NCBI RefSeq assembly: GCF_011745625.1
Contig: NW_027191521.1
Span: 1 to 38,175 of the forward strand
Reading direction: 5' to 3'
Source of the DNA: Cladosporium halotolerans
Lineage: Eukaryota
Length of the DNA: 38,175 nucleotides
The notes under the pieces are model-generated. The model made no database searches. It was not told the origin of the DNA and was given only the letters and a program-made list of their open reading frames with translations. Positions 1 through 25,377 of the stretch are shown piece after piece. Both the position numbers and the translations under genes were made by a program. The first letter of the stretch is position 1; each line of letters begins with the position of its first letter.

Positions 1-813
1 GGAATAGATACTAGGAGCTATATACTATCGAATAAAGCTTTAAAATTAATAATAAAATAACTTTGTTTTTCTAAATCTATACCCATACTTCCTTATATAT
101 AATCTCCGCCCACATGTTCGTGTTCGAATGAGCTTCGGCGCTTTGTGATGTCGCCTGCGTCTTTTTGATATGCTCCGGATTTCGATCGATTCTTTTTATT
201 CCTTTGTCTAGTTTTCCGACTCGACTGTCTTTTCCTCCTAACTTTCTTCCACCTTCCTCTACTGATTTCCCCTCACCGCTATCTCCCAATTATCGTTCCC
301 CGATCTATATTGCGGCTTCTCCCGCCTGACGCCACTCCAAACCTCTCTCCTCTATCCTCTTACTATCACGGGTAGCGGCTCTAAACAACCCGAAGCGCCC
401 TCGTCATTCTCTATTCGACCTATGACGTTTTATCACCATCTGCCTAGCCTAAGCGCTCTCCCATTCCTTTCCTGACTCAAGCGGTCTCACATTTCTCTCC
501 CTGACTTGACTAGTCTCCTCTTTTTTTTTTTTTTCCCTTTCTTTCCTAACCTAAGCGGCTTTTTATTTTCTCTCTCATCTCATCAGCACGGTTAGCGGGT
601 CTGACCTTCATCTCTGAGCCCGCTGCTGACTCATCTTCGCGTTCACGCCCTGCTGACATAATACGTCCTCGTCGAATATAAACGACTTCTTTGACCGTAC
701 GTATCCATTCCGTTGTCTTGTACGTATGATTTGTTCATTCGGATACCGCCATCGATCCCCCACTCAAATCTCTCCGCCGTATAATAAATGAATGCCCGGC
801 CGATCTGACAACC

Positions 814-2847
814 CTATCCTTCGTCACCCTCTACCGGTGACCCCAAAAAATTAGCCATGTTTCCTGTTATCGCCGGCGGACCAAACGTCTCTTCCATGAA
901 CCTCCGAACCATGGGATTGCCTCCTCCAAGCCTGCCACGCTCCTGGAGTACGTCTAACCCGACTCTACTAACTACCTTCAATCCCCTCAGACCGCGTACC
1001 CGGGACAATGCCACGTAAGCCATCTGCGGCTCGAAGATGTGCTCTAGATTCACCACCGCTTTCTCTAGCGTCATCCCCTGCGACTTGTGAATCGTGATCG
1101 CCCACGCCGGGAGCAGTGGGATTTGCGTCCGCGCCACCACGCTGAACGGCGGCGGGTCTCCGAGCTCCGTGTCTTGACACACGGGGTACACCGGGACTTG
1201 CACCCCGTTCTCGAACCGAACGATGGGCAATGGGAACTCGGCCGCCTGCTGTTGGGTCCACGACACGATCTCGTGCTCTTCCAAATGACTGAACTCGCCT
1301 GACTCTCGCAGCCGACGTTCCCGCTGCTTCATCAGTGGCTTATGCGGCGAGTATCCCACGATGCGCCCTTGGCTCCCGTTGACCAGTCCCGCACCGGCGT
1401 CGATGTTTGCCAGCAGAATGACGGGCATGCCGAACTTGGTCTCCAGCAGCGGCGGGAAGCGATGTTCCCGGCAGCCCACCTTGTTGCCCTCGCCATCCTG
1501 CTCTTCCTTGTTTGCCAGATGCGGGTGGTGCGGCTGGATGTGCACGTAGTCCTGGCATTTGTACGCACGAACCGCCCCGTGGATCGCCTGGAAGCCTTCA
1601 TGGTTCTTCTGCTCGACCTCCCGTCGTACCGGAGAGAGCTCTACCGCCTCTCCCACATCCCCCTCCCGGCCGTCGAGAAGTGCCAGTTGGTGTTTATCCA
1701 GCTTGTCACCTATCCGAAGACTGTTCAGAATGCCGATAAACGCCGGGTCGCTCTGCCGATGCACTTCTGCCAGCGACACACAGTGGAAGTTGCACTCATC
1801 CCAGACCTCGCTACGGAATGGCCACTGATCATCTGTGCAAAATTCTTCTTTGCAGTGTGGACACTTCAACTGCTTCTGGAAACCCAAGCCGCAGCCCAAA
1901 CAACTCTCACGCGGCCGCGGATTTGACGGTTGCCGCGTATCCGTTTGTCTTCCCGGCGGCGGCTCGCACCCCTCGCAAAACAGTTTCGCTTTTAATTCGA
2001 CACCGCACTCGAAGCAAGTTTGGAACGCCTTGACGGGCGGCAGCTGGTAAAAATCGCCCGTCACGACGACTTGGATGCCACCGAACGGAACGTCATTCTG
2101 ATGTGCCGCACGACACGCCTGGTCCAACCGTCGGGATTGGTTTGACTCGAGCATGCTGATTTCGTCGATGATGAGTACGTCCGTGTCTTTTATCCTTTGA
2201 CGACGCTCCTTCGACATTGCCATGTGTCTGATCTCCTCGATCGTTTTCTTCACGACTCCGGGGTTCCATCCTGCGTAAGTGAAGTATGTACTTCCGCTGA
2301 CATTGAGCGCCGAGATACCAGTGGGGGTGACGACTTGAACCCGCCGGTGCCTCTTTCGCAGCTCTCTCACAATCGCTCGTAAGACTGTAGATTTGCCGGT
2401 CCCGGCTCCGCCCGTGTAGAAGACGTTTGCGCCTGAGAGTACCAGTTCGACGAGCTTCGATTGCTCTCTACAGAGCGTTGGATCCGAAAGCACTTTGGTG
2501 CGTGCGTCATCGACACTTGGACTTTCGTGATCGTCCTCGCTACCGTGCTGGCATTGCTGGCGGGGTAGATCTACGGCTTGGTCTGTTGGAGGTCGTCCAT
2601 CTTGCCCTTCTGTGTACTCACGCTTTCCTGGGTACTCCAATACAATGTCCAGTCCTTTACTCGGCGTCTGCTCAGCAACGACGGACGATTTTGCGTCGTA
2701 GAATTGTGCGTGCAAGCGCTCGCGTCGGTCGTGGGCTTCCTTCTGTCGGAGCACACGCCTGCGGTCCACGTCTGCGCGTGCTTTCTCTGACGGGCTGGCG
2801 TACTTTGCTGGTCTCCCCCTCTTTTTGGACGGGGGTTCGTCGAACAT
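814..2847 (-). CDS. PIF1-family SF1B DNA helicase with Cys-rich (four CxxC) insert; probable start MFDEPP at 2847 (ORF is open to 3009)
   Basis: Walker A GGAGTGKS, PTGISA, Walker B IIDEISM, PFGGIQVVVTGDFYQLPPV, HRQSD, GLVNGSQG, RTQIPLLPAWAITIHKSQGMTL and YVALSR. Intronless, with an N-terminal KKRGRP AT-hook-like motif. Confidence 0.93.
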   Translation of the reverse strand: MFDEPPSKKRGRPAKYASPSEKARADVDRRRVLRQKEAHDRRERLHAQFYDAKSSVVAEQTPSKGLDIVLEYPGKREYTEGQDGRPPTDQAVDLPRQQCQHGSEDDHESPSVDDARTKVLSDPTLCREQSKLVELVLSGANVFYTGGAGTGKSTVLRAIVRELRKRHRRVQVVTPTGISALNVSGSTYFTYAGWNPGVVKKTIEEIRHMAMSKERRQRIKDTDVLIIDEISMLESNQSRRLDQACRAAHQNDVPFGGIQVVVTGDFYQLPPVKAFQTCFECGVELKAKLFCEGCEPPPGRQTDTRQPSNPRPRESCLGCGLGFQKQLKCPHCKEEFCTDDQWPFRSEVWDECNFHCVSLAEVHRQSDPAFIGILNSLRIGDKLDKHQLALLDGREGDVGEAVELSPVRREVEQKNHEGFQAIHGAVRAYKCQDYVHIQPHHPHLANKEEQDGEGNKVGCREHRFPPLLETKFGMPVILLANIDAGAGLVNGSQGRIVGYSPHKPLMKQRERRLRESGEFSHLEEHEIVSWTQQQAAEFPLPIVRFENGVQVPVYPVCQDTELGDPPPFSVVARTQIPLLPAWAITIHKSQGMTLEKAVVNLEHIFEPQMAYVALSRVRGLRGLKVVSRVGLDVLQERGRLGGGNPMVRRFMEETFGPPAITGNMANFLGSPVEGDEG

Positions 2848-2933
2848 CGTTTGCCGCTGTTGGTATACGTTGTGAGTGAAGTAACGGCGAGACAACGGTG
2901 CCCCACAGGCGCCCGCAGCGGCGTCAACGCGAC

Positions 2934-3001
2934 CGCGAAATTCCAGGCTGGGCTTGGCGTTGACCGCGAAAACCCGATACAGCCTAGTTTCGATCGCGAA
3001 A
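2934..3001. promoter_or_regulatory. Three CGCGAAA (SCB/MCB-like) motifs upstream of the helicase
   Basis: CGCGAAA at 2934, 2965 and 2995, each preceded by GAC or GAT, at 31/30-bp spacing. Confidence 0.35.
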
Positions 3002-3228
3002 TTCGCCATAGGGCTGCCAGGGCGGGCGTGCGGTCACGTCTCGCGGTGGTCACGCTGCTGCAACGGATCGTCGGAAGGTCTTATGTTTACTTCATGTACC
3101 TTGGCCGTGGTGTGTTCACGATGTGACGTGCGCTTCGTTCCATATCCCCTCCTCGTTGCATCTTGAGGCGCAGGGATACCAAGTCCAGCGCATGGCTATT
3201 CCAGCTGTTTGATCCAACCCTGACGGAC

Positions 3229-6200
3229 CTACATGCCTCCTCTCTCTATCCACTGTTGCCATTCTTCTTTGCCCCACTTCGTCCAGGCCGGGAAGTCTCT
3301 CGGCCTTCCTCTTTGCCATCCTTTCCTCGCCCATTCCCACTTTTCCGATCGTCTATCGTCCTCCGCGCTGCGCTGGATTGAGTACCACATTCGCTTTCCT
3401 GTCTTGGTGGTCTGGAGAAGTGCGTTCCCGCAGGGGTATGGCAACACCCAGTGGTACTCGTAAAGCCATTCCCACAGTCTTGCCTGGAAAAGCCTCTTGT
3501 ACTGCCGGTTCCGGATCCTGACGCCCGTCCTCGCTCGTCGATACAACACCCTGAAAGGCCGGTCCTCCCAGTGCTCCCTCACCACCCCGTCGTCGAAGCC
3601 AAAAAGGAAGTGGCCCAGCCTGGATACTTGCTTGAACTCGGTCTTGTTGCCCGACATCAAGTAGCAGCCTCCGCTCATGATCTCGTCGACGTATTCGTAA
3701 CACAGACCTTTCTCTCCCTTGACTGCCTCTTCTCGCACTTCCTCTTTGACTTCGCCCTTCACTGCGCTCATGACGTCTAGCCGAAACTGCGCCAGACAGA
3801 TGTGTACCATCCACGACACGAGTCGATCACAGAGCCGTTCGTTGTTCCGATGCTCTCCAATCCAGTCCAACGCGAGCTCAAGCTGGCGACTGATGTCGAA
3901 AAAGCCTCTCGCCTGCCTTCCGCGACGGAGGTACTCGCCTTGTAGAGTCTTATTGCCAAAAAGCACATTGTCCGTCACGTCCGAACGAAACTGGAGAGCG
4001 TTCCAGTCTATACGGGGCTCCAACCAGCAGTACTTATGCATGGGAAGGGTGTTCTTGAAACCAAGACCGTACCAAAACCGCAAGCGCGGTGGATCGCCGA
4101 CCGTTCTCTCGCGCTTGCTGTGCCAGAGCGCACCCTCTTGTTGGAGCAAGTGACCTCCACACACGTATCTGAGACAGCGCAAAAACATCGCCATCATTTT
4201 CGTTTGCTCCCAGGTGGTGAAGTCCTTACGGCTACGGGCTTTGACAATCTCGAATCCGGCGGCGAATTTATCCACACTGCGCCACAAGAAGTCGACGTAT
4301 ACTTCAGTCCTGATGGCCCACGAGTAAGAAGGGCATTCATCCAGGAGCATTGCTGGCTGTCGTGCGCTCTCGGTGCGGAAGCGATCCATGATTCCCTGAA
4401 ACACAGCCCACGTTACGCGGTGCTCCTCGCGGATGCCGTACGACTTCTGTCGTGCGTCTCGTAGTGCACGATGGGTTCGTTGCTTGCTTGCTAAGTACCC
4501 CACCTCGACGGTTTTCGCGTCTCGACGCCCCCCTCCAAGTATGTTCCTTGTTGCGTTCCGGATGTTGGGATCTAGGGCGAGCTCTTCCATGGCATCATTT
4601 GCGAACGGGAAGCACTTGTTGGCGTCGTAGATCTCCTTGACCGAGTTGTAGAACTGGCTGTATATGAGGCCTCCCTCTCTGTGCTTCGACTTCTTTGGAG
4701 TGACGCTCGTTAGGGAACCTGTGTCGTAGAGCATGTTTTGCGTGTAGTACTGCTGTCCTTCGCCTTGGATTGGAGGGCGATCATCGTACAGCCACTTCAT
4801 ATACCTTTCTAGGCAACATCGCTTCCAAGCATACACTTGTGGTTCATCGTCCAGGTGTCGCTCTTGTCCCTTAATCAGGCTGCTCTGAGGACAGATCTCT
4901 TTCCCGATGTCGACATAGAGCCTGTCCAGCTCAACAAAGTCGAGGTCGAGATAGTCCTCGAGGAATGTTTCAAAGGATTGCATTGCGTCGCCCAGACTTG
5001 GCCGAGTATCGCTGGTCTTGAATTGCAACTTCGTGCCTTTTGAAGAAAAAAATATCTGGGGGTCTCTGAAATCTGCCAGGCCTGGGACGGTTGCGATCGT
5101 TGTCAATACATCATCCCAGACGTGATCCAAGTACTCCGGTTGAAGGTGGTACCCTACGGCACGCTTGGCTTTGTAGCTCTGCCCTCCGACTTGTCGGGTC
5201 TCGACATTGTGCGCTCGTGAGTTGTCGGAGGCCGTCTGGAAGCTTGCCGGAATGTGCTGCGTGTAGTGAGCCTTGTAGAACTTGTGGAGGGCCGGAAGAT
5301 ATATTCGGTCCGCCCATCGGGAGAGCTGTTCCTTGTTGAGAGACTTGAACTTCTCCCCGAGTATCGGAATATGTGGGAATAAGACGTAGACGGTGATGTC
5401 GTGGGCACCTTCGATGCGGCCGAGCATGAAGTGTGGGATGCGCTGTAGCATCGCAACCCTGGAGTGGTCGGCTCTCTCGGGGTCTACATTTGGGGTAAAC
5501 ATGCGGTCGCGGATGTGTACATCTGCATTGATGTTCTGCCTGGTTTGCGGCGCGATCTGGGACCACAGGCCTTTCTTCGCGAACGCAAGCGACGTTGCGA
5601 AACCAAGGAAACTGTCGATGTCGAATGCTACATCGGCGTCGGTCGCGCGACTCTGTTCTTCGTGTAAGCATAAGTTGATGGGATAGCGCTGTCGGCCGTG
5701 GGTCGGTATGCCACAGAATATGGACTTCCACTGGTCAGATGTCGGCCTCCTTTCTCGAGCGAGACGCTCGGGTGTGATCATTTCCTGCAAACCTAGGACA
5801 GACGGGAAGGTATCGTCGTTGAACATCTCTGCAAGACCGTGGTGGTTATCGCCTACGTCAATTAAATGTCGCCTGCGGTGTTCATCGTGCTCTTCCTCCG
5901 TGCAGCCGTGAAAGCCGTGCACTAGTTCTTCGTAAAGCTTCTGGACCACAAACTCCAAGGGTGTGACTTCATCATCCTCACTGTCTTCACTAAGCAACGA
6001 CGAATGCTCCGATTGGAAGCTGACGTGGGATTCACTGTCACTGCGGTTGTGCTCTAGGCTACGAAGCTGCTCTTGGCCGAGGAGATCCTCGCTTCCGACC
6101 TGGTGATCACTCAATTCTTCCACAGGAGGATTGACACTCCAGTCTTGGTCTACGTCGCTGATGGCATTGTCCACGAAGCCTTCGTCCCTGCCCGCTTGCT

Positions 6201-6840
6201 CTTGCTGGGTATGTGTAAGCCCCTCCAGATTCTCTGCGGATGGTCCATTATCATACGACTCGGGCTGTGGCTGTGCTCTACTTGGTCCAGCAATGGGAGA
6301 AGATATAACCGGGCCGTTGAGACTGCTACTCACACGTCGTGTCGTTCCGCTATCTGTGGCGGTCCTTGCTGGGAGCGACTGAAAGTGTCCCGTGAGTAAG
6401 GATCGATTTTGAGAAGCGTCCTTTGGTAATTGACTCGGCCTTGCAGCAAATTGTTTGAAGAACCCCTCTGGTAACATTCTCTGACGCGGTATATAGTCCT
6501 GGGCTCTTTCTTGTTCTTGGTACATATCATGTTGTTCGTCGACATCCGTCGCGTTCTGTTGCAACTCCACTTCAGCGCAATCTTGTGGAAAGCTCATTCC
6601 CTGGACACGGAGCCCAAGTTGCATTAATGTTGCTGCTGCATTTTCTTCGGCAGAGGTTGTAAGGTTTATTATTTGTTCGCCCTGTACGAGTTGCTCTGTC
6701 GACCTTGCCGTCGTTCTGTTGTTTCCTTCTCGTTGCCTTTGGCGGAGCTGACGTACGCGTTCCCGTGTCTGCGTGCGCCGGCGCTCAACAGCAGCATCTC
6801 TGCTGTCGTCAAGGACTGGCCGGCCGCGTTTAGATGTCAT
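3229..6840 (-). CDS. Large intronless hypothetical protein (1203 aa), probably mobile-element encoded
   Basis: Uninterrupted 3.6-kb ORF. N-terminal KRGRP and basic helix, low-complexity linker, His/Cys patch (HGFHGC..HDEH), then a ~850-aa aromatic-rich globular region. Family not recognised. Confidence 0.85.
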   Translation of the reverse strand: MTSKRGRPVLDDSRDAAVERRRTQTRERVRQLRQRQREGNNRTTARSTEQLVQGEQIINLTTSAEENAAATLMQLGLRVQGMSFPQDCAEVELQQNATDVDEQHDMYQEQERAQDYIPRQRMLPEGFFKQFAARPSQLPKDASQNRSLLTGHFQSLPARTATDSGTTRRVSSSLNGPVISSPIAGPSRAQPQPESYDNGPSAENLEGLTHTQQEQAGRDEGFVDNAISDVDQDWSVNPPVEELSDHQVGSEDLLGQEQLRSLEHNRSDSESHVSFQSEHSSLLSEDSEDDEVTPLEFVVQKLYEELVHGFHGCTEEEHDEHRRRHLIDVGDNHHGLAEMFNDDTFPSVLGLQEMITPERLARERRPTSDQWKSIFCGIPTHGRQRYPINLCLHEEQSRATDADVAFDIDSFLGFATSLAFAKKGLWSQIAPQTRQNINADVHIRDRMFTPNVDPERADHSRVAMLQRIPHFMLGRIEGAHDITVYVLFPHIPILGEKFKSLNKEQLSRWADRIYLPALHKFYKAHYTQHIPASFQTASDNSRAHNVETRQVGGQSYKAKRAVGYHLQPEYLDHVWDDVLTTIATVPGLADFRDPQIFFSSKGTKLQFKTSDTRPSLGDAMQSFETFLEDYLDLDFVELDRLYVDIGKEICPQSSLIKGQERHLDDEPQVYAWKRCCLERYMKWLYDDRPPIQGEGQQYYTQNMLYDTGSLTSVTPKKSKHREGGLIYSQFYNSVKEIYDANKCFPFANDAMEELALDPNIRNATRNILGGGRRDAKTVEVGYLASKQRTHRALRDARQKSYGIREEHRVTWAVFQGIMDRFRTESARQPAMLLDECPSYSWAIRTEVYVDFLWRSVDKFAAGFEIVKARSRKDFTTWEQTKMMAMFLRCLRYVCGGHLLQQEGALWHSKRERTVGDPPRLRFWYGLGFKNTLPMHKYCWLEPRIDWNALQFRSDVTDNVLFGNKTLQGEYLRRGRQARGFFDISRQLELALDWIGEHRNNERLCDRLVSWMVHICLAQFRLDVMSAVKGEVKEEVREEAVKGEKGLCYEYVDEIMSGGCYLMSGNKTEFKQVSRLGHFLFGFDDGVVREHWEDRPFRVLYRRARTGVRIRNRQYKRLFQARLWEWLYEYHWVLPYPCGNALLQTTKTGKRMWYSIQRSAEDDRRSEKWEWARKGWQRGRPRDFPAWTKWGKEEWQQWIERGGM

Positions 6841-7183
6841 TTTATTGTTGTGGTAGGGGCTTCAGTATAAGGTTTGGACAGAATGTATTATAGTTGCCTA
6901 TAATACTATCATAGTTCTACCCCAAAGCGACTCCCCTTTTCAGCGGGAATTGTAACGCTCTTGGCGGGGATTTCCTATTCCGGCCTCGAATTGTAACGCT
7001 CCGCTTCGAAACTCTAATAAAGTCGGTGATTTTGACAATAACATACATAACAACCAGAGCTAATATAAACGTTATAAAGACATAGGGCGATAGAACTATA
7101 CTTATTCTATATACTAGTAAAGTAAAACAAGATGTAAGTCGTATAATGAAGTCTAACCCTAGGAGTATAGATAGCCCGTGACG

Positions 7184-9086
7184 CGAAGTGGTGCTGGGAC
7201 GTCAACCACGAGCCTTCCACATTTTGGCAGGTCTCCGTGATTGGGTACTGAACTCGCAATCTCTCAAAGTGACTGAGCAATTTCTCGAAGGTCGGAAGCA
7301 CTTGCCAGACGGCACCGGATTTGCCACCGGCGGATCCCTGCAACAATTGCGTTGCGTCCTTGAGTGGCTTCAAGATTTCGTGATACCGCGCAATCACAGC
7401 CCATTCGTCGCTACTGAGCTTGTCGCGGACGATCGAAGGCTCCCTTCTAGCGATTCGTCTTCCGCTATCTTGTGTCCGGCGGACGTAGTTGTTCCAGCTG
7501 TCTTGCTCTCGCTGGACAAACTCGTCGATGGCGGGGCGTAGGTAAAGTGCCCGTGCAGCACTGTCGTCGAAGCTGTTCCATCTAGTAATGACACCCTTCA
7601 CGACCTGATACACTTCCCTCTTGCCCTCAGGTTGCGTTGGACCAATGAGCTCGCGCTGCAGTCCTACGAGCGTTTCCCAACGCTGAGATGATGCGTCCAG
7701 GTACACAAGAACGTTGTGGAGCTTGCCGATTGGCCCTCTCCTCCGCCATTCGACTAACTGTCGCTCTTCCAGCTGGAGATCTTCAACTTCGCGCTCGAAT
7801 GCATCGAAATCTTTGCCGAAAAGAACGGCCTGTCCGCAGAGGTTGAAAATGTGACCAACGCAGCGGAGCCATCGGCGCTGTGGGTCGAAGTGGAACTCTG
7901 TCCCTAAAAAGCCTAGCGCCTTTGCATTGTTACGTGCATTGTCGCTTATGAAATAGCCGACCTTGTTCTCAAGACCATAGTGGCAAATGATCTCTGCAAC
8001 GGTGTCGGCAATGTTCGAACCAGTATGCCGACCTTTTTGTCTTGGTAGGGCGAGTAAGATGCTTTTGGGGCAGCCTGCGTTGTCGATGAAGTGGGCGATG
8101 TCACAGACTACACCTTGACTCTAGGCTGTGCCAAGAATATGTCTTTTCCCATAAGACATTCACGCACGTGACCCACAATAATCGTACGATGGTTGCATGA
8201 CGAGCACTGCACAGCATATGTACGCGGATTCTTGTCCTACCTTGGGTCTGTCTTCTCTTTAGCTTTACAATTTGGGTAGATAGCCTAGTACTTTGTGAGA
8301 AACATCTTACTTGAGCCCGTGTCAGGCGACCAATCCAAGCAAAGCCAAACGATTCTTCGAGGTCCACAGATCGAAGGAAAAATTAATCTTCGTCGCCGCA
8401 GCTCCTAAAGCTTCAGTGACAGCACCCAGCTGCTTGTCATAGATCTCTCCAATTGTTCGGCTGACTGTCTGGTGTGAGGGCAAAAGCCGCTCGCATCGAG
8501 AACTGAGATATCGTAGTAGCGCATGGAATGGTGGAGACTCGACCTTGCGAAAAGAAACGTTGTCGGTGACTATCCAGCTGTAAAGCAGGGCTTGGAAAGC
8601 ATTGGATGAGAAGTCCTCGGGGCCGCTGCTCCTAGCACTCGAGTTGACATTACACGAGAGCGCGTCGGAAATTTTCACCTCTCTCGTCTGAGTGGTGAGT
8701 ATCGGGATTGGACCAGTTTCTGTAAGCTTGTGTCTTATTCTCTTGTGATCCAGAGCTGAGCTTGTTGACTTTTCGGTCCGGTACAAGCATCCCTTCAGAT
8801 ACCAGTGCTGATGGCAGACCTTGCAGAGCCAATATTCGTAATCAAATCCACCTACGATCCTCCACCCGTGCTTCCAGATCCAGGATACCTTCTTCTTGTC
8901 ATCGGTCGGCAGTCTGTATCCTTCAAGGCGCTTCCAATTTACTCCATCCGCCGGGGCCTTTCGCTTGAGCTGCTGAAACAGTGTCGGTTTCACGCTCGCC
9001 AAGTCATCTTTGCAAGAAGACGGCTCGGATGTGGCTTTCGAATCATGTTCATTGTTGCAGCGTGCAAAACCACTGTCGCCGTCCAT
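7184..9086 (-). pseudogene. hAT (Restless/Tfo1-like) transposase, split by a solo LTR and 3'-truncated
   Basis: BED-like finger (WLCKVC..H....H), FDLWTS, HTGSNIA, SDNA, RCVGHIFNL and TRWNS. The frame is continuous (LGLVA|HFID) once 8099-8324 and one TSD are removed. The C-terminal dimerisation domain is missing. Confidence 0.9.
8099..8324. mobile_element. Solo LTR, 226 bp
   Basis: TGTCAC...GTGTCA termini with 5-bp TSD GGCGA at 8094-8098 and 8325-8329. It interrupts the transposase frame. Confidence 0.9.
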
Positions 9087-9239
9087 GCTTTTATTGACTG
9101 TTGCTCTAAGTCGCGTGCGCGTCGCGACCGTTACGTGACGAGTCCCGCTGGAGCTCGGGGCGTGGGGAAAGTGGACGGCGCTACGGCCGAACCTCGACCG
9201 TCTCCAGTTTAGGTGGCTGCGCGCAAGCGCGCTCTAGCA

Positions 9240-9259
9240 TAAACCCCAACCCAACCCTA
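9240..9259 (-). repeat. Candidate 5' terminus of the hAT element (TAGGGTTGGGTTGGGG on the minus strand)
   Basis: hAT-like TAGGG start about 170 bp upstream of the transposase ATG. Partner TIR not found. Confidence 0.35.
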
Positions 9260-9580
9260 GCAGTGGTCTTCGCGATTGTACTTTGGCAAGACTTGCAAAC
9301 CTTGACCACACTTGCTTTGTTTACTTGATCACGTGGTCAAGGGGGATATCCGTTGCTTTGTTTGTTTGGACAAACAAAGGGGGCAAAGGCTTTGTCACTG
9401 CTTTGTTTGTGGACCAGTCTGGATGAGGCTCTGCGGGCTCGTCCGGCCGAAGGAGCCTTACCCCAAACAGGGAGATACCCTTGAGTCGCAAGGGTTGGGG
9501 TTCTCCGCTGCCAAAGTGATGCTCAGGGAAACACAGTCCAATTAAAATTCTTGATTGTGTCATTCACTGGACGAATCTGC

Positions 9581-11313
9581 TTACAAGACCTTGTCAGTGA
9601 CGTACAAGTCCACATACTCGTCTACAAGCATCTCATATAGCTTTGACGGCTCGTTTCCCAAATCCATCAGCTTCTTGACGTGAGGTTCGCTGAAATGCGC
9701 CAGCAGATGCCTCTCGAACTTCGCCATGATCTCCGGCTTGGCCTCTTCACGTCTTGACATATGGCCTAATGGAGCTTCAACAGCTTCCTCTTCCAATACC
9801 GTCCCGTCTTTGAGCTTGACTGTAAGGGCGTTGGCGATAGTACGCTTATCAGGATTGTGGTAATCCTTGGTGAACTGCGGGTCTTCGACACACTTAATCC
9901 TTTTCCGCAGCGATTCGACTAGTGGTGAAGTGGCCGCATCGCTGCCGTCGGTGTAGTCTTCTGCTGCCAAGCGATTGAAGACGAACATGGTCGAGATCAT
10001 GTATTGCACGCAATGATCACGGTCGGCGAAGTTATCCATAGGCTTGAACTGCTTGTCGATGATCTTAACACAAGCCGCGTGCGTGCGGTTGGTCACACCC
10101 TCGATATCTTCGGCCGTTTTGCCCATGGCAGCGAGCGTTTTGTTCAACCGCTGAGCTGCCTCTATGGCAGTCTGAGAATGGAATTCGGCCGGGTATGAAA
10201 CCTTGAAGAGCAAATTTTCCATCACGTAGGAGCCGTACGGCCGCTGAAACTTGAATCTTTCGCCCTGGAAGTTGACGTCGTAAAAGCCCCACTTAGGAGC
10301 GGAGAGAACGGTGGCCATGCCACCTTCCCCAGCCATGACTTTCAGACACGCATTGATAGCGCGCTCGCACGCGTCGCCAGCGGCCCAGGACTTACGGGAC
10401 ATGGTGTTGGGACTGTGGCGGTAGGTACGCATGGATTGGCCGTCGACCCAGGCCTGGGAGATGGCGTCGCGGGTTTGCGCCTCGGACAGCCCGAGCATGT
10501 GCGAAACGACGGCAGTGGAGGCGACTTTGACATTGACAACATGGTCCAGGCCAACCTTGTTGAAGCTGTTTTCCAGCGCGAGACAGCCCTGAATCTCATG
10601 GGCCTTGACCATGGCCTCGAGAACATCTTTTACGGTGAAGATGGCGCCATTACCGACCTTCTTGCCACCTGCGCCTGCTTTGTTGGAACGGTTCATCCAA
10701 TCAGCCACGGCGAGGATTGCACCCAGATTATCGGACGGATGACCCCATTCGGCGGCGAGCCAGCAATCATTGAAGTCGAGCCAACGGATCATGATGCCGA
10801 TGTTGAAGGCACCACGGACAGGGTCGAGTTGGTAAGGCGTGCCAACTACTTTGGTGCCATTAGGGACGATGGTGCCTTTAACCACGGGCCCGAGGAGCTT
10901 GGTGCAATGGGGGAAGTCGAGGGCTTTCATACCGCAACCCAGCGTGTCGAGGAAACACAAGCGGGCGGTGTCGATCTAGAATATTAGTTACATGCGCGTC
11001 AATCCGTCCCGTTTGAACTTACAGCTAAGTCGGAATTGATCTTGTAGCGGTGGACATACGAAGCCATGTCAACGATCTCTTGATCATACTTGGCGGGCGA
11101 AGCGGGCGACGCAAAAGGTTCATTGGGGAAATTCCGCCCGAAGGTGGTCGAGAATGTGCGATGAAAGTTGTCCAGTGAAGCGGAAAGACCGTAAAAGGAT
11201 GTGGCGAGACGTTTGGCGGATATAAAACTAGAAATGGGAGCTCTGGGACTCGCGGATAGTGCGCTACTTCGAGAGGCTGTGCGGGCGAAGCTACGGCTGG
11301 ATATCAAACTCAT
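9581..11313 (-). CDS. prpD: 2-methylcitrate dehydratase (MmgE/PrpD family), mitochondrial; exons 11313-11023 and 10975-9581
   Basis: RWLDFNDCWLAAEWGHPSDN, GLDHV, RKSWAAGDA, PAEFHSQTA and DRDHC. 47-nt GTAAGT..TAACTAAT..TAG intron giving SDLA|IDTARLC. Arg/Ser-rich presequence. Confidence 0.95.
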
Positions 11314-12198
11314 AGCTGAAAGTGTCGAGAGACGAAGATTTGGCCTTATCAGGATACATACGACAATCGAATCTCGAGGGAGCGTCGTATCACTCAACAT
11401 TCATACGTGTCAAATGCTTTTAGTCTAAGGCGACGGCACCCTATAAACAGGCAAGGGCTCTGACACCGTCTGTTTAGGGCAGCACCGAGGCAGGGGTCTG
11501 AGGTGGTACGTCACAATGATTTGACCGTGATGTTTCATTCAGAGACAGCAACCAGCCTGCCCCATGCAATCGCTCGATCCTGTCATCCGGCAACCAGGCC
11601 AAACGCGACTCAATATTGCTACTCTCCTTAGCAAATCCCCGATCACAAAGCAATCGTTGTCCCTGCCGTGTCTAAGAACCTTGTCATGCACCGAGAATCG
11701 CATGTGCAAGACTGACGTCACGTAGGGTAATGTAACCATGAGTATTACTCGAAACGAATATGGCATCCCGTGGATTCGATTGGAAAACCTGGGGGACCAG
11801 AAGCATGAGGCATGCGAAGTTTATTGAAGGTTGAAGGCTGCTAAAATATATACTAAGCGTGCTCTGAGTCGGGCTGGGGGGTGCCGTCTCTCAATTCGTA
11901 GTGGTCCTTGTCAGTTGGAAATTGTAGGATCATTGCTGCAGCTGGCTCGCTTGCAGCAGCGTGTCTCATCCGGCGCCCCGCTGATACCCCGCTCGTCAAG
12001 TATTCCCCCTGTCTGGGAGCGTCATTGGCGGATGTGTATTCCTCACGATGACGAACGGCGAACGGAACAGAAGCTTCTATCTTTCAAAAACATTTGACGG
12101 AAAAAGATGACAAGATCTCGAAATACGATCCCAATCATTCTTCAATCTAGCGCCACCTCTGCCACGTCCGCTCCAACTTTACACTGCCCGCATCAACG

Positions 12199-13227: not shown

Positions 13228-13738
13228 ATCAGCTATGGCCGCATGTAGGGCAGCTTAAAATGTGTAATTCATGTTCAGCTCCACCGGCTAGCTACGTCAA
13301 AGAATGTCTTGCGTGATGGCTCAAGCTGATTGCAGGAAGGGATTAAGCCCGTATCAGATGATTGGAGTGGAGTCATTGAACAAGACTAACTTACGGCTAG
13401 TATAAGGTTACGGCGAGGTCGATCTTTACGAATGCGATACAGAGCTCGTAAGTCCAAGGTGATAGCGGCAGGTTTCGAAATTGCATACGGACCCCGTTCA
13501 AAAGCAGAAGCGACCTCCAATGCACATCAACGCCTGCTACTGTACTGTAACGTCGTACCGAGCTTGAGGTCTTCGGTGATTCTGTATCACGCCTGCTCAC
13601 TGTGTTGATCACTCCCGGGCCAAGACCATTCGAACGTTAACTTACACTTACAAGATTAACAGTGAAACGCGCTTCGTCGTGGATCTCTTGGCCGAATGAT
13701 TTTCCCGACATCATGGACTCAGGGCAGGGGTTGGGGTA

Positions 13739-15689
13739 ATCGTGCCGGCCAGGGCTTCGCGCGGCCCAGCTACCCCTCGTCTCGTCTCAGACTCGCGAGC
13801 GAGTGCCGCACAGCTCAATGCAAAACACAGCTCAATGCAAAAGTTGGTATAGCTACGCGTCTATTCCCTTTTCACATATACTATTCAATCGCCATGGCGT
13901 CTAAATACCACCAGGTCGAGGCGGAGATTGATGAAGCTATTAGTTTTCAGAGAGACCAAACGGAACCTCTTAAAATTACCCATTTGGCCTCATTGTTTGA
14001 CGTCCCCTACGACCGCTTACGTAGGCGGCTCCAAGGCAATGACTCAAGAACTACGCGCGCTCCTACAAACAGGAGACTGGACAAGGAGCAGGAGGCTGCG
14101 CTAGTCACCTACCTGGAGCGTTGTGAGGCCCTAGGAGTCCATGCACGGCCGCGCGCATTAACTATCTCTGCCGAATCAATCCTCCGGCGTGCGTATACAG
14201 ATATATCGCCGCCACCAACAGTCAGCCATTCATGGACCCTACGCTTCTTAGAACGCCACCCTACATGGAAGAAACGTAAACAGGCGCCCCTAGAGGCAGT
14301 TCGAGCAGCTGCCTACGACCTCTCCGATATTGAGGGCTGGTTTGAGAAGCTACACGCAGTCATTCAAAAGCATGGCATTACACCTGAGAATATATGGAAC
14401 ATGGATGAGACAGGCTTCCGAATTGGCACCAGCAAGAGCCAGTATGTGCTTACTGAGCAGCCTGAGAAGCCCCACTTCCTACCAATTGCGAATAACCGTG
14501 AGAGCCTCACGGTGGTGGAGGCAGTCTCAGCTGGTGGTATAGCTATACCGGCTATGCTTGTCATCGCCGCAAAACAGCACCAATCGAGCTGGTTTCAGAA
14601 CCTACACGACACGACACTAGTAGGAGCCGCTGATAATGGCTATATGAATGACGAGTTAATGGTTAGATGGATTGCGCACTTTGAGAAGCATTCTCAGCGC
14701 TCTCAAAGAGGTGCCTGGCGGCTACTTTTACTCGACGGCTACGGCTCCCACCACACCTACGAGTTCATTAAGTACTGCGATGAACATAAGATCATCCCCT
14801 TCGGACTGCCATCGCATTCAACACACTTCCTACAACCCCTAGATGTCGTGGTATTTCAGCCCTATAAACACTACCAATCTGAAGCTGTTAACCGAGCTGC
14901 GCGGCTTGGCTGTAGTGATTACAACAAGCTTGAGTTTTTCAATGACTTTGAATACTTCAGGCGACAGGCCCGGTCCCCTGGCACTATCAGAGCAGCTTTT
15001 GAAAAGACAGGGATATGGCCATTCAATGCAGCTATCGTGGTGGATTTCGTGCGCGCTCGGATCGAAGCAATCCGCCGAGCTCCTGCTCGAACGCCTATAC
15101 CACCACCAACCTACGATATCACGACTCCGCGTACAGTGCGTACGCTTAAGCGTCACTCAGATACTATCTTAAATGATAACCTACTTCATCCAGCTCTCAA
15201 AACTCGGCTCCTACCACTCCTTCGCGGTGCCCAAATTCAGGCTATTGCTGGGGCTGAGGCAGTCGAAGAATTAAAGGATTCAACTGTGGTAGCAGCTGCA
15301 TCTCGAGCTCGTGGACTACACAAGGGGTCTAGCCTTCAACGTGGCGGTATCCTTACGACTGCAAATGCGCGCCGCATGGTTCAAAATCGCGAAGATGATG
15401 AGATTGAGAAGGCCAAAAAGATGATTGAACGAGCAGATCAGGCTGCTTTTAAACAGCGTACGACCACCATGCTCAAAGCTATTCAGCCAGGTGGATCCCT
15501 ACCTATGTGGAAGAAATATCGCGCAAAGGTTATACCAACCTGGTGCCAGGTGATGGATGAATTAGTAAATACAACAAGTAGTAATGTATAGCTTTGCATT
15601 GAGCTGTGTTTTGCATTGAGCTGTGCGGCACTCGCTCGCGAGTCTGAGACGAGGGGTAGCTGGCCGCGCGAAGCCCTGGCCGGCACGAT
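13739..15689 (+). mobile_element. Complete pogo/Fot1-type Tc1-mariner DNA transposon (1951 bp)
   Basis: TIRs of about 100 bp (ATCGTGCCGGCCAGGGCTTCGCGCGG...) with internal ACAGCTCAATGCAAA repeats. TA TSD at 13737-13738 and 15690-15691. Confidence 0.96.
13894..15591 (+). CDS. pogo/Fot1 DDE transposase (CENP-B HTH + DDE_1), 565 aa, intact
   Basis: WNMDETGF, LLLDGYGSH and HFLQPLDV. First ATG inside the TIRs is at 13894. Confidence 0.95.
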   Translation: MASKYHQVEAEIDEAISFQRDQTEPLKITHLASLFDVPYDRLRRRLQGNDSRTTRAPTNRRLDKEQEAALVTYLERCEALGVHARPRALTISAESILRRAYTDISPPPTVSHSWTLRFLERHPTWKKRKQAPLEAVRAAAYDLSDIEGWFEKLHAVIQKHGITPENIWNMDETGFRIGTSKSQYVLTEQPEKPHFLPIANNRESLTVVEAVSAGGIAIPAMLVIAAKQHQSSWFQNLHDTTLVGAADNGYMNDELMVRWIAHFEKHSQRSQRGAWRLLLLDGYGSHHTYEFIKYCDEHKIIPFGLPSHSTHFLQPLDVVVFQPYKHYQSEAVNRAARLGCSDYNKLEFFNDFEYFRRQARSPGTIRAAFEKTGIWPFNAAIVVDFVRARIEAIRRAPARTPIPPPTYDITTPRTVRTLKRHSDTILNDNLLHPALKTRLLPLLRGAQIQAIAGAEAVEELKDSTVVAAASRARGLHKGSSLQRGGILTTANARRMVQNREDDEIEKAKKMIERADQAAFKQRTTTMLKAIQPGGSLPMWKKYRAKVIPTWCQVMDELVNTTSSNV

Positions 15690-20206: not shown

Positions 20207-23200
20207 TCAGTCTCTCGCTTCCAATCCAAGCGCCATTCTGAATCGAGTGAACAACTCCTTGTTTAGTGGCTTAGTCAAGCCGTCTGCAATCATCTTCGAC
20301 GTCTTTGTCCACTGCATATCAACATCGCCATCTTCAGTCCGCTCGCGGACGTAGTGGTGCTGAATATCCACATGCTTCATCCTGCCATGAAATTGAGGGT
20401 TCTTAGATGAAGCAATAGCACCTTGATTGTCTCCAAATATCACGGTTGCATCCAACTGTGCATGCCCGAGGTCCTTCAAAAGCAAGCGTAGCCACATTGC
20501 TTCCTTGGTAGCCTGTGTTTGTCCGATGTATTCAGCTTCACAAGTGGATAGTGATACTGTAGCCTGCAGCTTGGATGACCAACTAATGGTCCCGCTACCT
20601 AGGTTGAAGACGTAACCAGAGGTTGATCGCCGAGTTTCTGAGTCTCCGGCCCAGTCTGCATCGGTGTATCCGAGCAGGGATGCTAGATGTCCAGTGTATA
20701 CAAGCTCGTAGTCGAGAGTACCTCGAAGGTAGCGCATAATACGCTCGACAGCTGTCCAGTGAGTCTGGTCGGGGTTGGAAGCAAATCGGCTTACAACTGA
20801 GACAGCATATGCAATGCCTGGGCGGGTGCCAAGCATAGCATACATCAGGCTACCGACTGCCTTCTGATATCGCTGCCTAAAGACCAAGCTAGCGACGTAC
20901 TCAGGATCAGGTTTCTTGAGCTTAGCTCCTGGATCCATTGGTACTGCGGCAGATTTGCAGTTCCACAGATTGTGGCTTTTGAGAAACTTCTCAATATATG
21001 CTTGCTGGCCGAGGTAAATGGTGCGGTTCGCTCGGTCACGACGTACTGCCATACCAAGGTAGTAATGACATGGTCCAAGGTCTGTCATTGTGAAGCGAGC
21101 GCTCAGCGCCCGCTTGAGAGCGTCAATCTCATCCATGTCAGGACTAACGATAAGAAGATCATCGACATAGACCGCAATAAAGGTAGCGCCTTTGTAGAAC
21201 ACGCTGACGTCTGCAGAAATCGGCTTATACCCAAGGCTCCGAGAAACTGAGTAAGGAGGTTATACCAAATCCGAGGGGACTGCTTGAGGCCATACAGCGC
21301 CCTGAGGAGTTCACAGATCCACTCCTTATTATTGTCTGGGGATCCATCCACGTCCAAGCCTTCCGCGTCTGGTTCGGCCTCAAACCCGGTTGGTTGATCG
21401 ACGTATACCTCATCTAGTATATCACCGTAGAGGAATGCAGTCTTAACGTCCATCTGATGGATATGATAGTCTTTTGCAGCAGCGATAGCAAATAGAGCCT
21501 TGTAGCTCATTGGCTTGACTGTAGAGGCAAAGGTCTCAGAGGTGTTGTCATCGTCTTGCTCGAAGCCTCTAACAACCCAACGGGCTTTGTATTTTGCAAT
21601 ACTACCGTCTGCGTTGCGCTTCAGGGTGAAAACCCACTTGCCCCGGAGTACTCGCTTGCCGTTGATTGAGGATCGCTTCTTCAAACGCCAAGTTTTGTTT
21701 AAGCGCAGAGATTTCACTTCCTCGTTCATTGCAGACTTCCACTGGCTCCAGTGACCACTAGTCTTCGCTTCGTCGACAGTCTTAGGTTCAAATGGCTCGG
21801 TGAAGAGTGAAGCAAGCATCAGCGTATAGCAAAGTAGCGTAAAGTGTCTGTTGTCAAAGGAATCTGGTTGCTTGATCGCTGGCTGATGAGCCAAAGCAAT
21901 CGCTGTCCATTCCTCATCTGGGTATAACGTGTTTGGCTTGTTGCGTCTCGGACTTCCGGTTGTAGTACGCTCTGATTCAGTCGGTGTTGATGGTCTCGAA
22001 GGTACCTCTGGTCGTTCAGATTCGTTATCTTCATCGCCGTTCCCTTGACCTATACGCCCGAGAGCTTCTCGAGCTTCCTCAGCTAATGCTATCTTCTTAG
22101 CTGTTGCGTCAGCTGCATTGGCTGCCGCGGCTTTGTCTGAACCAACAATGCTGTCCGGAGGAGCCACAAATGGCAGTCCCCCTGGCTCAACGGGCTGTGT
22201 TGTGCTATTCCCATCAGTTGTACAGTCTTCGATAGGTGAGAGTGTCTCTGGGCCAGTGTGTGGTCTGCGCTCCCTGATTACGACGTTGGTACGCCATTCA
22301 GGCTTGCCGCTATCGCCGTCAGGTGCCACAAGGTAGTTGAAATGTCCTTTGAAGCCGAGCAACCGTCCAGTAAATGCCTTGGTGCCTACGACTTTTTGCC
22401 TCTTCCTCTCTGTCTTGAGTACGTACACCTTGCTACCGAGTGCTCGTATATGAGAGATATCGGGCTGTTCGCCTCGAAACTTCTCGTACGGAGTGACTTC
22501 GTGCCTGCTACAGGGTGAGAGGTTTCGGACTTCCATAATGTAGTGTTTGACAACCGGAGCCCAGTAGTTAGGGCTGACACCAGCAGACAGCAGTGTGGGT
22601 TGAAGCTTTTCTTCAATAGCCTTGTTCAGTGCTTCTGCACATCCGTTGGCTTCGTGTTGTTCAGTATCTGAGTACTGCAAATCGATCGCTTTGTCGTAGG
22701 CCCAGTCTTTATATTCAGTGCTTGTGTACTCTCCACCCCTGTCTTGAATGATGCAGCGTGTTACCCGTTCAGGACGCCCATGTCGCTCGAGAAAGTGCCT
22801 AGTACTTCTGAATACCTCCGACTTGTGAGATATGGTATCTACCTCGGCCCACTGCGTATAATCATCTAGGTGGGTTACCCAGTATCTGCTACCGTCGATG
22901 GCCTCGTCAAACGGTCCAGCAACGTCCGTATGGATGACTTCCATCGGAGAAGTACCTCTACGGAGGTGGCCGTTGTGAGGCCGCTGTCGCATCCGTCCAA
23001 GTACGCAGGCTTCACAGATACAGCGGCCATCCGGCTGTGTAGCATCCATGCCTGTGACCATAGTGCGTAGTCTCTTCAGGCTGCTCTCAGAGAGATGGGC
23101 CATTCTTTCGTGCCATAGTCGTAGGCCGGCGTCTTCGACACTATACGCTGCCGCAGCCATGTCTACTCCGGCTAGTCACGCCGTTGTGTCTAGCATGAGC

Positions 23201-25377
23201 AGTCCAGCCTTAATGGTAGCGCCGAACCGATGGATGCCTTGCGTAAATGTGAGGCCGTTGTCCGTCTTGTGAATGTTGTCGATATATGGCCACAGTTCAC
23301 TTAATGAAAGTAGATTGACCCCTGCTTTCGGAGAGTATCGAACTTCCGGTATTTCGAGCCATCTAGTACCAGCAGCTGTCTTGCATTGCACTCGAAGAGT
23401 CCCCTTGGCTACCGGGGTAACCGTGGCTCCACCAATACCGTTAGCTGTGTGTCCTTCAATGGCTTTAAGTGATCCTTCGACAAAAGCATCTTTGCGGCCA
23501 ATGAGGTGTCCGGAGGCGCCAGAGTCAAGTATCCATGCGTCCCAGAGGTTTATGCCACGGTGAATTGCCATATACTCGCTGGACGTAGAGCTGTTTGTGA
23601 ACAATGCCGTATTGTCGGTAGGTTGCGCTGATTCGGTGCATAAAGTGATACCAAATTGGCCTTGGTAGTTATCGCCAAAGATTGCTTTCTTTGTAGCAGC
23701 ACCCATGATCGAGATACCTGTATCTTTGTTGTTATACGGACGCTTCTGCTGTGTTTGCTTTCGTGCCAGACGCGCCGCCTTCAACAGCTTCCACCACTCA
23801 GGTGCAGTAGAGTCATCTGCCTCCCAACACGGTTGGCCAGCTGGATGAGGATACTGCTTATTACACGTCAGACAAGCCTTTCGTTGTTGTAGGTTCTGTT
23901 GACGGTTTCCGCTGAAATAAGCCTTAGTCGCGTCTTTGAGATTGCGGCCTTCGTACTCTTCTGCGAGTTTGATTGTGCGTTTAATCGACACAGCCTTGTC
24001 TTGGTCCTTGCCTTGGTCCTTGTCTGAAGCCACGATGGCATATCTGAGGTTGAATGACGTTTTGAACTCTTTGAAGGAGTCTGTCAGCCCATGTAAGCAA
24101 GCTTGCCAATGGTACGAACACTAAAGGGTACCCTGTGCGGGTAGACGTTTTCTTAAAGGGTAGAGAACTGAACAGGACATTTGCTTAATGAACACTATGA
24201 CACAATGTATAGCCGATGAGTAGCACTTCTGGCGAGCCTGATTTTGTGTGCTTGTGAGGATGTTTTTTTTCAAAAATGTCGGATTCCTGTATCACCCCAA
24301 CCCCTACCCTGAGTCCATGCTGTCGGGGAAATCATTCGGCCGAGAGATCCACGACGAAGCGCGTTCGGTCGACGCGTTGCTTTGAGAGAGAGCTCTAGCA
24401 GTATAATACGCCGCCTGAAGTGCTTTGCGATGGCTGACATTAATATGTTGTCGGACGATTCATCCTGTGTTAGCGAACACGAGGGAAGCGGTTTCGAATA
24501 TGTGAGGACACGCAACACCCCAAAGCAGGAGTACACAAGCTAAGAATGTCCTTAGAGCTGGCTCATTCACTCGCTCATCGTTGAGAGTATTGTCAATCGT
24601 CTATAGAGCCCTGTCCCATGCGAAACTCTTCAACTGTCAATCTGTAAGTATATGTAAAGAAATGGAGACTGTCGTGTTCTTTAATTCTTCGATGAACACT
24701 CTAAAACAATGTCACGTGATTGCCAAGACTCCTTGTGGCACACCCGAACAGCCAAAAGGCTTAATGAACAGCGATTTTCTTAAAGGGTACGTATAGGGTA
24801 GGGCCCCTTATTGGGTATGCTTACCATCGCCAAGCTTGCATGTAAGAACTTCTGTACCACAAACGATTCTGGCAATGCTACCGTGCTATGCAGGGTTTGC
24901 ATATCGTCTGTCACCTTCTGAATCTGAGCCCCATAGTCGGAGACGTTCTTGCAGTTGGATAGTGACAGGTCGTTAAAGGTGGCGCAGAGATCTTCGTAGC
25001 GGCCAGATCCAGACTCTTTAAACTCCTTGTCAAGCACTTCAAGTGCTTGCTTGATAGGTGTTTTCTTTTCCTTCTCAGCCATGAGCTTGCTCGCTCGATA
25101 GCCACATGTCTCATCCACTGTTGCGAATGCTTGTGACTGCTTATCCATCCACGCTTCCAGTCTAGCTTGGTAAGCGCCATTGGCTTCATTTTCATTGTTC
25201 TCGCCTCCAGCTTCGTGCTGCTTTGGCATTTCTGTCTGTCGTTCGAGGATCGCTGTGAACCCAGTCATTATCAGGCAGTTTTTGATCTGCTTGTGCCATG
25301 ACGGCCAGTCCTCTGGCGACTCCAGCTTCTTGAATGTATTGAAGGTCCTTCTTGGACTGTTCACGATACACCGACAT
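20207..25377 (-). pseudogene. Copia gag-pol with frameshifts (about 25332 and 21235), a MITE insertion and an in-frame TGA (23176-23178)
   Basis: WILDSGASGH (protease); LWHERMAH, CEAC, IHTD, QDRGGEY and NGCAE (integrase); KARWVVRG, QMDVKTAFL and YVDD (RT); YTDADW, EAEY, DNQGA and ADGLTK (RNase H). Confidence 0.93.
24098..24838. mobile_element. Non-autonomous hAT element (MITE, 741 bp) inserted in Copia gag
   Basis: TIRs CAAGCTTGCCAATGGTA and CAAGCTTGGCGATGGTA (15/17). 8-bp TSD CATGTAAG at 24090-24097 and 24839-24846. Removal restores QKFLH|GLTDSF. Confidence 0.95.

Follow-up and report, generated by a model that had tools for sequence, protein, structure and literature searches.

A helicase-bearing repeat unit of Cladosporium halotolerans and a large, telomere-associated protein family of ascomycetes

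What kind of genetic element joins a very large protein without a recognisable domain to a PIF1 helicase, and how does such an element spread? The question is raised by one complete contig of Cladosporium halotolerans (NW_027191521.1 of assembly GCF_011745625.1; 38,175 bp, called here the window), near the left end of which a first-pass annotation had proposed a helicase-bearing, possibly rolling-circle mobile element made up of an "orphan" 1203-residue protein, labelled FAM in this work, and a PIF1 helicase. We found that both genes lie within one discrete repeated unit and that the FAM family is associated with telomeres in a fixed orientation. We favour, with some reserve, the interpretation that the unit is a telomere-associated repeat element, comparable to the Y' elements of yeast and to the telomere-linked helicase (TLH) regions of fungi, with FAM as its hallmark and PIF1 in place of the RecQ-like helicase.

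One discrete unit of two genes

The limits of the unit were set with contigs of four public runs from four studies (X1, X3, X5 and X8 among them), aligned to positions 1-12000 of the window; most runs carrying the unit are air or urban metagenomes, and no RNA run is listed among the carriers of this stretch. In all four runs, the contigs match positions 100-7181 with 0-3 differences per piece of 0.4-4.7 kb, an identity of about 99.9%, and then turn to unrelated sequence, so that FAM and PIF1 form a single discrete unit of 7.08 kb, composed as follows (L-numbers denote 80 related metagenome loci, the best 80 of 139 confirmed).

100..7181, minus strand: the whole repeat unit (5' leader, FAM, PIF1, 3' tail), 7,082 bp, from the run contigs and the relatives' 5' end
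7122..7181, minus strand: 5' terminus, starting TCACGGG; the homology of the window, L001, L002, L003 and L005 begins there
6989-7002 and 6948-6961, minus strand: the motif AGAGCGTKACAATT, present twice, 108-162 nt before the FAM ATG
3229..6840, minus strand: FAM gene, 1203 amino acids, no family match, evident purifying selection
6817-6831, minus strand: KRGRP and basic N-terminus of FAM (KRGRP, residues 4-8)
FAM residues about 40-300, minus strand: acidic region, poorly conserved
FAM residues about 300-860, minus strand: conserved core
FAM residues about 864-1153, minus strand: separable C-terminal domain
about 5610-5625, minus strand: FDIDS motif in the FAM translation
about 4900-4923, minus strand: RLYVDIGKE motif in the FAM translation
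about 4633-4662, minus strand: YSQFYNSVKE motif in the FAM translation
about 4417-4437, minus strand: GIREEHR motif in the FAM translation
814..3009, minus strand: PIF1-clade helicase gene, 731 amino acids from the first ATG, likely start Met55 at 2847
100..813, minus strand: 3' non-coding tail; tandem repeat of 28 nt at 451-506, TAGCGG-like motifs that recur, breakpoint cluster at 585-664

The left flank is common to X1, X3 and X5 and unlike that of the window, and the right flanks differ among three X1 contigs (agreement 0.6), another contig in X5 and an X3 contig continuing for about 3.7 kb. The idea of a helicase-bearing element thus holds in so far as the two genes sit in one discrete repeated unit with other flanks elsewhere. 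Run X1 also contains a second FAM variant (24 differences in 308 letters, 27 in 274), at least two diverged variants being present within this one run.

The two open reading frames (ORFs) are co-oriented on the minus strand and intact, as first described, and the reported spacing of about 380 bp is that to the PIF1 Met55 (381 bp; 219 bp to the first ATG), which we take as the likely start because most relatives begin at the matching residue. Of the AT-rich, decayed DNA said to flank the pair, AT-richness holds at positions 1-200, with a GC content of 0.345; positions 7000-7180 are the unit's own conserved 5' leader.

The 5' end is defined to the base. In the window, L001, L002, L003 and L005, it reads TCA(C/A)G, then about 15 variable nucleotides, then TAGGGTTAGA, with unrelated sequence upstream; upstream of FAM in these four relatives (63-81% protein identity to it across residues 300-1203), alignment with the window starts no earlier than the base matching 7181, and L001 and L003 are near-identical inside the unit and different outside it. 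The 5' terminus is therefore conserved across divergent copies. No target-site duplication (TSD) is visible at the unit ends, and no empty site was recovered. No inverted repeats link the two ends, and the terminal 61-121 nt fold no better than shuffled sequences (z -0.56 to 0.74), leaving no terminal hairpin. The 3' end, ...GGAGATTA, is not of the CTRR type.

The leader carries two kinds of motif. A telomere-like TAGGGTTAGAC (7151-7161) precedes the FAM ATG by about 320 nt and contains the sole telomere-like 9-mer of the window (7153-7161, gene strand), which is 20 nt inside the 5' end and amounts to 1.5 repeats; the same motif is found 315-344 nt upstream of the ATG in L001-3 and L005. The motif AGAGCGTKACAATT is matched twice in the window, against 0.05 matches expected by chance, and occurs in 1-3 copies in 13 of the 80 FAM loci (2-3 copies in 12), always on the coding strand upstream of FAM, and in 0 of 80 bacterial loci. 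The AGAGCGTKACAATT copies are candidate promoter or protein-binding sites.

Some observations concern the 3' tail. The contig breakpoints that cluster at 585-664 come from X1, X5 and X8, and an X1 contig of depth 635 (depth not being equal to copy number) contains a short tandem repeat resembling TAGCGGGT; 39 bp of the tail apparently belong to a far more abundant dispersed or tandem repeat. A search of Rfam gave no match in window positions 1-9600.

A large protein family oriented towards telomeres

The FAM family is telomere-associated and its orientation is fixed, the gene being transcribed toward (TTAGGG)n. Five of the 80 loci end in arrays of 3-20 TTAGGG repeats, which begin 1.3-7.2 kb past the FAM stop, (TTAGGG)2 is present in 7 further loci, and in all 12 the repeats lie downstream of FAM on the coding strand, with none on the other strand; a sixth contig ends in 13 telomeric letters. 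On the coding strand there are 23 telomere-like 9-mers upstream of FAM and 44 downstream, as against 13 and 11 on the other strand (inside FAM, 0/1). Six contigs of a single element display the border itself: L066 passes into the telomere at exactly the base where a short internal repeat, and then other DNA, stand in L061-L065. Terminal or short internal telomere repeats mark the 3' side of the unit in L003, L061-L066 and others, and none is found at the 3' side of the window copy. The closest metagenome relatives, L001-L003, carry FAM alone, 1.3 kb from the telomere, with no helicase gene between.

Repeats of other kinds accompany several of these loci. In L062 (10064-14238) and L064, a reverse-transcriptase ORF of 980 or 802 amino acids lies on the other strand, directly after the internal telomere repeat that closes the FAM/OrsD unit, and the element resembles a telomere-inserting retrotransposon of the MoTeR/FoTeR kind; L062 and L054 (8755-8839) share the same first letters past the internal telomere repeat. 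Upstream of FAM, arrays of repeats that contain telomere-like 9- to 13-mers and have a period of about 50 nt are found in L063 (1967-2080) and L065 (3389-3527), and an array with a period of about 400-500 nt on the opposite strand in L048 (2183-6367). These upstream arrays resemble the 'helicase-associated repeats' reported upstream of Magnaporthe TLH genes.

FAM cannot be called an orphan. A profile search places it in a very large family that extends to several genera of ascomycetes: among 1.84 billion cluster representatives, counted at 50% clustering, 1,978 match the FAM profile at E<=1e-3 and 588 at E<=1e-30. A word-indexed search gave 154 relatives at E<=1e-3 among the candidates scored, with 39-96% identity, and those with names come from Verruconis, Fusarium and Exophiala. 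Most of the relatives that were located are on contigs of 4-9 kb.

The alignment of 36 sequences, down to 22% identity, has 22 invariant columns, including D409, S410, H470, E547, K604, D644, C675/C676, Q729, Y731, R788, R804, E806 and R808, while D407, H442, K735, D739 and others are conserved at more than 90%. The four motifs singled out by the first-pass annotation (FDIDS, VDxGKE, YSQFYxSxKE and GIREEHR), all present where it placed them, are therefore truly conserved, and the Asp, Tyr and RxExR residues that it flagged are among the invariant ones. The coding sequence is intact in 9 of 9 copies examined; dN/dS is about 0.12 in a close pair (L001 versus L002), and pN is 0.11 in the core, where synonymous sites are saturated. 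FAM is evidently under strong purifying selection.

The family has no meaningful match in the family and structure collections searched. FAM has no Pfam family at E<=0.1, and there was no meaningful Pfam match in sets of 26 close, 20 distant and 36 mixed members, the last set followed to E<=10, a threshold at which no transposase, recombinase or nuclease family appeared. No NCBIfam or PHROG family matched FAM, sequence profiles of the PDB gave low-complexity hits only (E 0.23 and 5.2), the best score in the ESM Atlas was 0.79, below the usable level, hhalign paired FAM with a TLH-type protein at a probability of 3%, and viral contigs scanned with the FAM alignment contained no relative. The earlier statement that no HUH, DDE or tyrosine-recombinase motif is present therefore stands for FAM in Pfam, NCBIfam and PHROGs, and, by Pfam, FAM is in no classified transposable element (TE) or Starship family, neither DUF3435 nor DUF3723 being found. 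From its conservation we infer an enzyme-like protein.

Parts of FAM are repeated in gene models of Fusarium. In one, the C-terminal domain of FAM recurs after a second copy of the PIF1-type N-terminal module, and in another a second FAM core stands in tandem. Among these gene models, P0104 and P0110 have a full FAM followed by a second, partial FAM, which in P0110 is preceded by an RGRPAKYAS module, the same as opens the PIF1 of the window; this N-terminal module is common to different genes of these elements. A protein filed under Hortaea werneckii, on a 4.9-kb contig, is 99% (891/896) identical to the window FAM. Either the unit passes between genera almost unaltered, or a common airborne fungus has contaminated one of the records.

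The second ORF is a PIF1 helicase, as annotated (Pfam PF05970, E 1.2e-27; Pif1_2B, E 8e-7). It has an N-terminal KKRGRPAKYAS...RRR module, with KRGRP at residues 63-67, and a Cys-rich insert, and its P-loop GAGTGKS and DE box DEISM are invariant in 11 clade members. The KRGRP motif and an Arg-rich stretch are indeed found at the N-termini of both window proteins, but their likeness is confined to the short motif (BLASTP E 0.04), and profile comparison does not pair the two N-termini. Residue 292 is Ser in the window, but Phe in all 10 aligned clade members and in all four runs, which have A for the window's G at position 2135. The S292 site, just past the DEISM box, is nearly invariant, and the copy in the window may be slightly impaired by this residue.

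The helicases of the elements form a clade of their own (SH-aLRT 100), with members 52-73% identical to the window protein and located on short contigs, apart from the host-type PIF1s on megabase contigs, which follow taxonomy and are about 40% identical. The element helicase is, by this phylogeny, a deep and divergent paralog of fungal PIF1. Its nearest named relative is from Cladosporium halotolerans itself (93% identical). Helitron_like_N (PF14214) is in none of the 120 PIF1 relatives listed, nor in either window ORF, and a scan of prokaryote genome contigs with the PIF1 alignment retrieved only bacterial Pif1-like genes, with 25-40% identity.

The helicase partner of FAM is not constant. 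An OrsD/TLH-type gene adjoins FAM in 16 of the 80 loci, downstream and co-oriented in 13 of them, and one upstream neighbour encodes a 1483-residue protein with OrsD, DEAD and Helicase_C domains, the make-up reported for fungal telomere-linked helicases. (These counts were made from neighbour domains; a tblastx grouping of 29 downstream regions, partly joined via telomere or simple repeats, was set aside.) The PIF1 helicase domain stands beside FAM in 0 of the 80 metagenome loci, L023 having the PIF1 N-terminal module only, starting right after (TTAGGG)2. Members of FAM and PIF1 clusters nevertheless lie on contigs that agree exactly in length in 9 cases across 4 cluster pairs, 3 of them for the window's own clusters. 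A quick tree, with several long branches meeting, groups all PIF1-linked FAMs in a single 13-row clade (SH-aLRT 99) and places the OrsD-linked ones elsewhere. The linkage of FAM to PIF1 proposed at the outset is therefore to be narrowed to one FAM clade, in which it recurs. There the pairing is, on the evidence of tree and contigs, real, and the partner appears to have been swapped in the window's clade from RecQ-like TLH to PIF1.

How the unit may spread

If the unit is a telomere-associated repeat, recombination-dependent DNA synthesis would transfer copies of it between chromosome ends or from a broken end to another end. Synthesis would begin at or near the telomere-like 5' seed and run toward the end, and the fixed orientation would, in this proposal, follow from it. 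The unit's own helicase would drive the copying, and FAM may add a DNA-processing step by means of its invariant Asp, His, Glu, Lys, Tyr and Arg residues. We suggest such copying because PIF1 promotes break-induced replication, because RecQ helicases act in telomerase-independent telomere maintenance, and because TLH-type genes are reported to rise in telomerase-negative cells.

Several observations weigh against this interpretation. Only 5 of 80 loci show a terminal array, the window has no telomere array and only the 9-mer at 7153-7161, and the 3' end of the unit in the runs abuts hAT-like sequence, not telomere. To the want of PIF1 helicase domains beside FAM in the metagenome loci is added that the PIF1 linkage outside the window rests on equal contig sizes and on the N-terminal fragment of L023. 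Seed-primed copying would leave behind the 20 nt upstream of the seed, yet TCACG is the conserved boundary, and the sharp, identical ends in non-telomeric flanks are such that a transposition-like step fits better. The last 99 bp of the contig are possibly an assembly artefact, and the 3' boundary then rests on one context.

The next reading, which we think improbable, is that the unit is an autonomous DNA transposon belonging to a new class, in which FAM, through a fold not yet described, would serve as transposase or nuclease and the helicase as accessory, and which would have defined ends, leave no TSD and prefer chromosome ends or breaks. The two flanks of the window copy bear on it.

1..99, no strand: left flank, outside the unit; AT-rich contig end, uncovered by contigs of the four runs
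7182..9233, minus strand: hAT transposase flank, outside the unit, in two frames (7182-8120 and 8322-9233)

The truncated hAT noted beside the pair does adjoin the unit: alignment with full-length hAT proteins shows the transposase cut at 7182, after ...QHHFAS, its last third with the dimerisation domain being absent. A simple insertion of the unit into this hAT was considered and rejected, the continuation TTSINLGWQKL..., which follows QHHF in full-length hAT proteins, being encoded neither by the 99-bp flank nor by the flanks in the runs. The two junctions of the unit with a hAT, that of the 5' end in the window and that of the 3' end in X1, X3 and X5, fall at the same codon (...HHF), but in opposite orientations and in distinct hAT paralogs; when window 7182-7196 is reverse-complemented, it agrees with the final 15 letters of the runs' flank at 13 of 15 positions. 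In a gene model of Cladosporium allicinum (P0287), a hAT dimerisation domain (66-133) is joined to the C-terminal 60% of a PIF1 of the element type, a second instance of a hAT physically entangled with the element PIF1 clade.

A transposon would account for the same sharp 5' end in at least five unrelated flanks (window, L001, L002, L003, L005), and in several X1, X3 and X5 contigs besides, for two different 3' flanks at one base, and for the 20 nt conserved upstream of the telomere-like seed, which seed-primed copying does not carry. The meeting of both ends with a hAT at one codon in opposite orientations is what is expected of a free linear unit ligated to a recurrent break. In gene order, moreover, FAM comes first, starting about 340 nt from the 5' end and reading into the unit; AGAGCGTKACAATT sites recur near that end in 13 of 80 loci, and the strong purifying selection and the invariant Asp, His, Glu, Lys, Tyr and Arg would suit a transposase. 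What such a transposon should also have is missing, namely terminal inverted repeats (TIRs), terminal hairpins, a visible TSD, an empty site, the hAT remainder that a simple insertion would have left across the unit, and, in the 36 members searched to E<=10, any transposase, recombinase or nuclease family. The telomere-ward orientation and the telomere repeats at the borders are, besides, typical of subtelomeric repeats that spread by recombination. One might speculate further, if with considerable doubt, that FAM, its fold as yet absent from Pfam and PDB sequence space, is a catalytic protein that has been overlooked, and that it belongs to a widespread and new class of ascomycete DNA elements which target telomeres and have interchangeable helicases, mostly RecQ-like TLH and here PIF1. 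TLH regions, long regarded as passive repeats of the subtelomere, would then be mobile elements in their own right, autonomous, with defined ends and able to attach to chromosome ends and to breaks.

It is quite unlikely that FAM and the helicases beside it are a non-mobile host gene family for telomere or subtelomere maintenance that was passively duplicated along with chromosome ends, the unit being a recent segmental duplication. The strength of purifying selection, the intactness of FAM in 9 of 9 copies and the conserved promoter-proximal motif would agree with a host function, published accounts mostly treat TLH genes as belonging to the host, and TAGGGTTAGAC might be a site for a telomere-repeat-binding transcription factor. 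A segmental duplication, however, is hard to reconcile with an identity of about 99.9% in 100-7181 that is lost abruptly at the same two bases in several contexts, or with a base-exact 5' boundary kept across copies with 63-81% protein identity (residues 300-1203). The location of most relatives on 4-9-kb contigs, as for repeats, the at least two diverged variants in run X1 and the tandem FAM paralogs in Fusarium gene models also speak against a host family.

The rolling-circle reading with which the locus was first presented, in which FAM would be a non-HUH initiator of Rep_trans type nicking with Tyr731 while PIF1 unwinds the displaced strand, can draw on the conserved YxxxYxxxK (Y727, Y731, K735), acidic strand (D407, D409) and R804-E806-R808, on the 5' TC, on the want of TIRs and TSDs as in Helitrons and on PIF1 itself, but has become very improbable, since the 36 members searched to E<=10 yielded no Rep_trans, HUH, Helitron_like_N, relaxase or other initiator family, an HUH triad, a 3' or other terminal hairpin and a CTRR end are all absent, the helicase neighbouring the family in the 80-locus sample is RecQ-like (TLH type) and not PIF1, L001-L003 have no helicase gene between FAM and the end of the unit or telomere, and the PIF1, as far as domain content shows, groups with fungal cellular-type PIF1s and not with Helitron helicases.

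Surroundings, known systems and significance

The unit points toward the left end of the contig and stops 99 bp short of it; a telomeric position of the window copy is plausible. In a transition-tolerant local alignment, the 99-bp flank had no likeness clearly exceeding that of shuffled sequence to the unit, the hAT or the relatives' flanks, the best score being 43.0 against a shuffle maximum of 42.5. On the other side, most of 7600-12000 has little or no cover by run contigs, and nothing is drawn from that. The remainder of the contig is rich in TEs, which are interspersed with metabolic genes (PrpD, ComA-like, transketolase, transaldolase):

13696-15591: Tc5/pogo-type DDE_1 transposase ORF, 631 amino acids, apparently intact
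20207-23706: Copia-type polyprotein in three ORFs

The DDE_1, hAT and Copia genes of the window all lie outside 100-7181, and DUF3435 is in none of the window ORFs scanned.

The Y' elements of Saccharomyces cerevisiae are subtelomeric, of about 5-7 kb, and code for a helicase; short stretches of telomere repeats lie between Y' units, which multiply through recombination if telomerase fails. The unit would be like them in these first features and in having a telomere-like motif on the centromere side, but Y' has no FAM-like gene and its helicase is a diverged RecQ of superfamily 2 (SF2), not PIF1.

Also comparable are the TLH-containing regions of fungi (Magnaporthe oryzae, Fusarium oxysporum, Botrytis, and the telomere-associated 'DHX' families of Colletotrichum). 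Like the units of the FAM family, these are multi-kb units beside (TTAGGG)n in one orientation, with short telomere repeats at the borders and a helicase gene inside, and the OrsD/TLH-type gene itself occurs in the 16 FAM loci mentioned above. The window unit differs in that its helicase is PIF1 (superfamily 1), without OrsD zinc fingers, and not RecQ-like (SF2), in that its 5' border is a specific TCACG terminus and not a telomere tract, and in that no telomere array adjoins it. In Fusarium, TLH regions are reported to have telomere repeats on both sides (10.1101/2024.02.27.582403), and subtelomeres to contain a MYND-finger gene with unnamed proteins of 1255-1543 residues (10.1101/2023.02.05.527183), an arrangement resembling L057. 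In open-access papers and preprints, their supplements excepted and the texts being in part accessible, there is no description of FAM or of a PIF1-type telomere-linked fungal element, the nearest being those 'hypothetical proteins of 1255-1543 residues'.

Three kinds of TE share single features with the unit. Strain Vv3 of Botrytis cinerea has a helicase-only 'Helitron-like' TE at nearly all subtelomeres (10.1101/2022.03.07.483234). [quoted passage not shown] Helitrons proper share the PIF1-family helicase, the lack of TIRs and TSD and the 5' TC; in the window unit, by contrast, there is no Rep/HUH domain, the helicase is unfused, a 3' hairpin and CTRR are wanting, the FAM family is telomere-associated, and the PIF1 groups with fungal PIF1 paralogs. 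Starships also have their first gene at the 5' end reading inward, large uncharacterised proteins and no obvious TIRs. They differ in having a DUF3435 captain or DUF3723, neither found in the unit by Pfam, and in a size of tens to hundreds of kb against 7 kb, and the FAM family is set apart by its telomere association.

TLH regions are known in many fungi, although their function and spread are not understood, and a very large unnamed family without a Pfam model is now tied to them. Both helicase types concerned, RecQ-like and PIF1, have been linked by established yeast work to telomerase-independent end maintenance. The base-precise ends, the conserved 14-nt upstream motif and the short list of invariant residues offer handles for experiment. 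Should FAM prove to be an enzyme acting on DNA, a new kind of element, selfish or end-healing, would reside in the subtelomeres of fungi, and this, if true, would bear on the stability of accessory chromosomes and on the rapid turnover of subtelomeric genes in pathogens.

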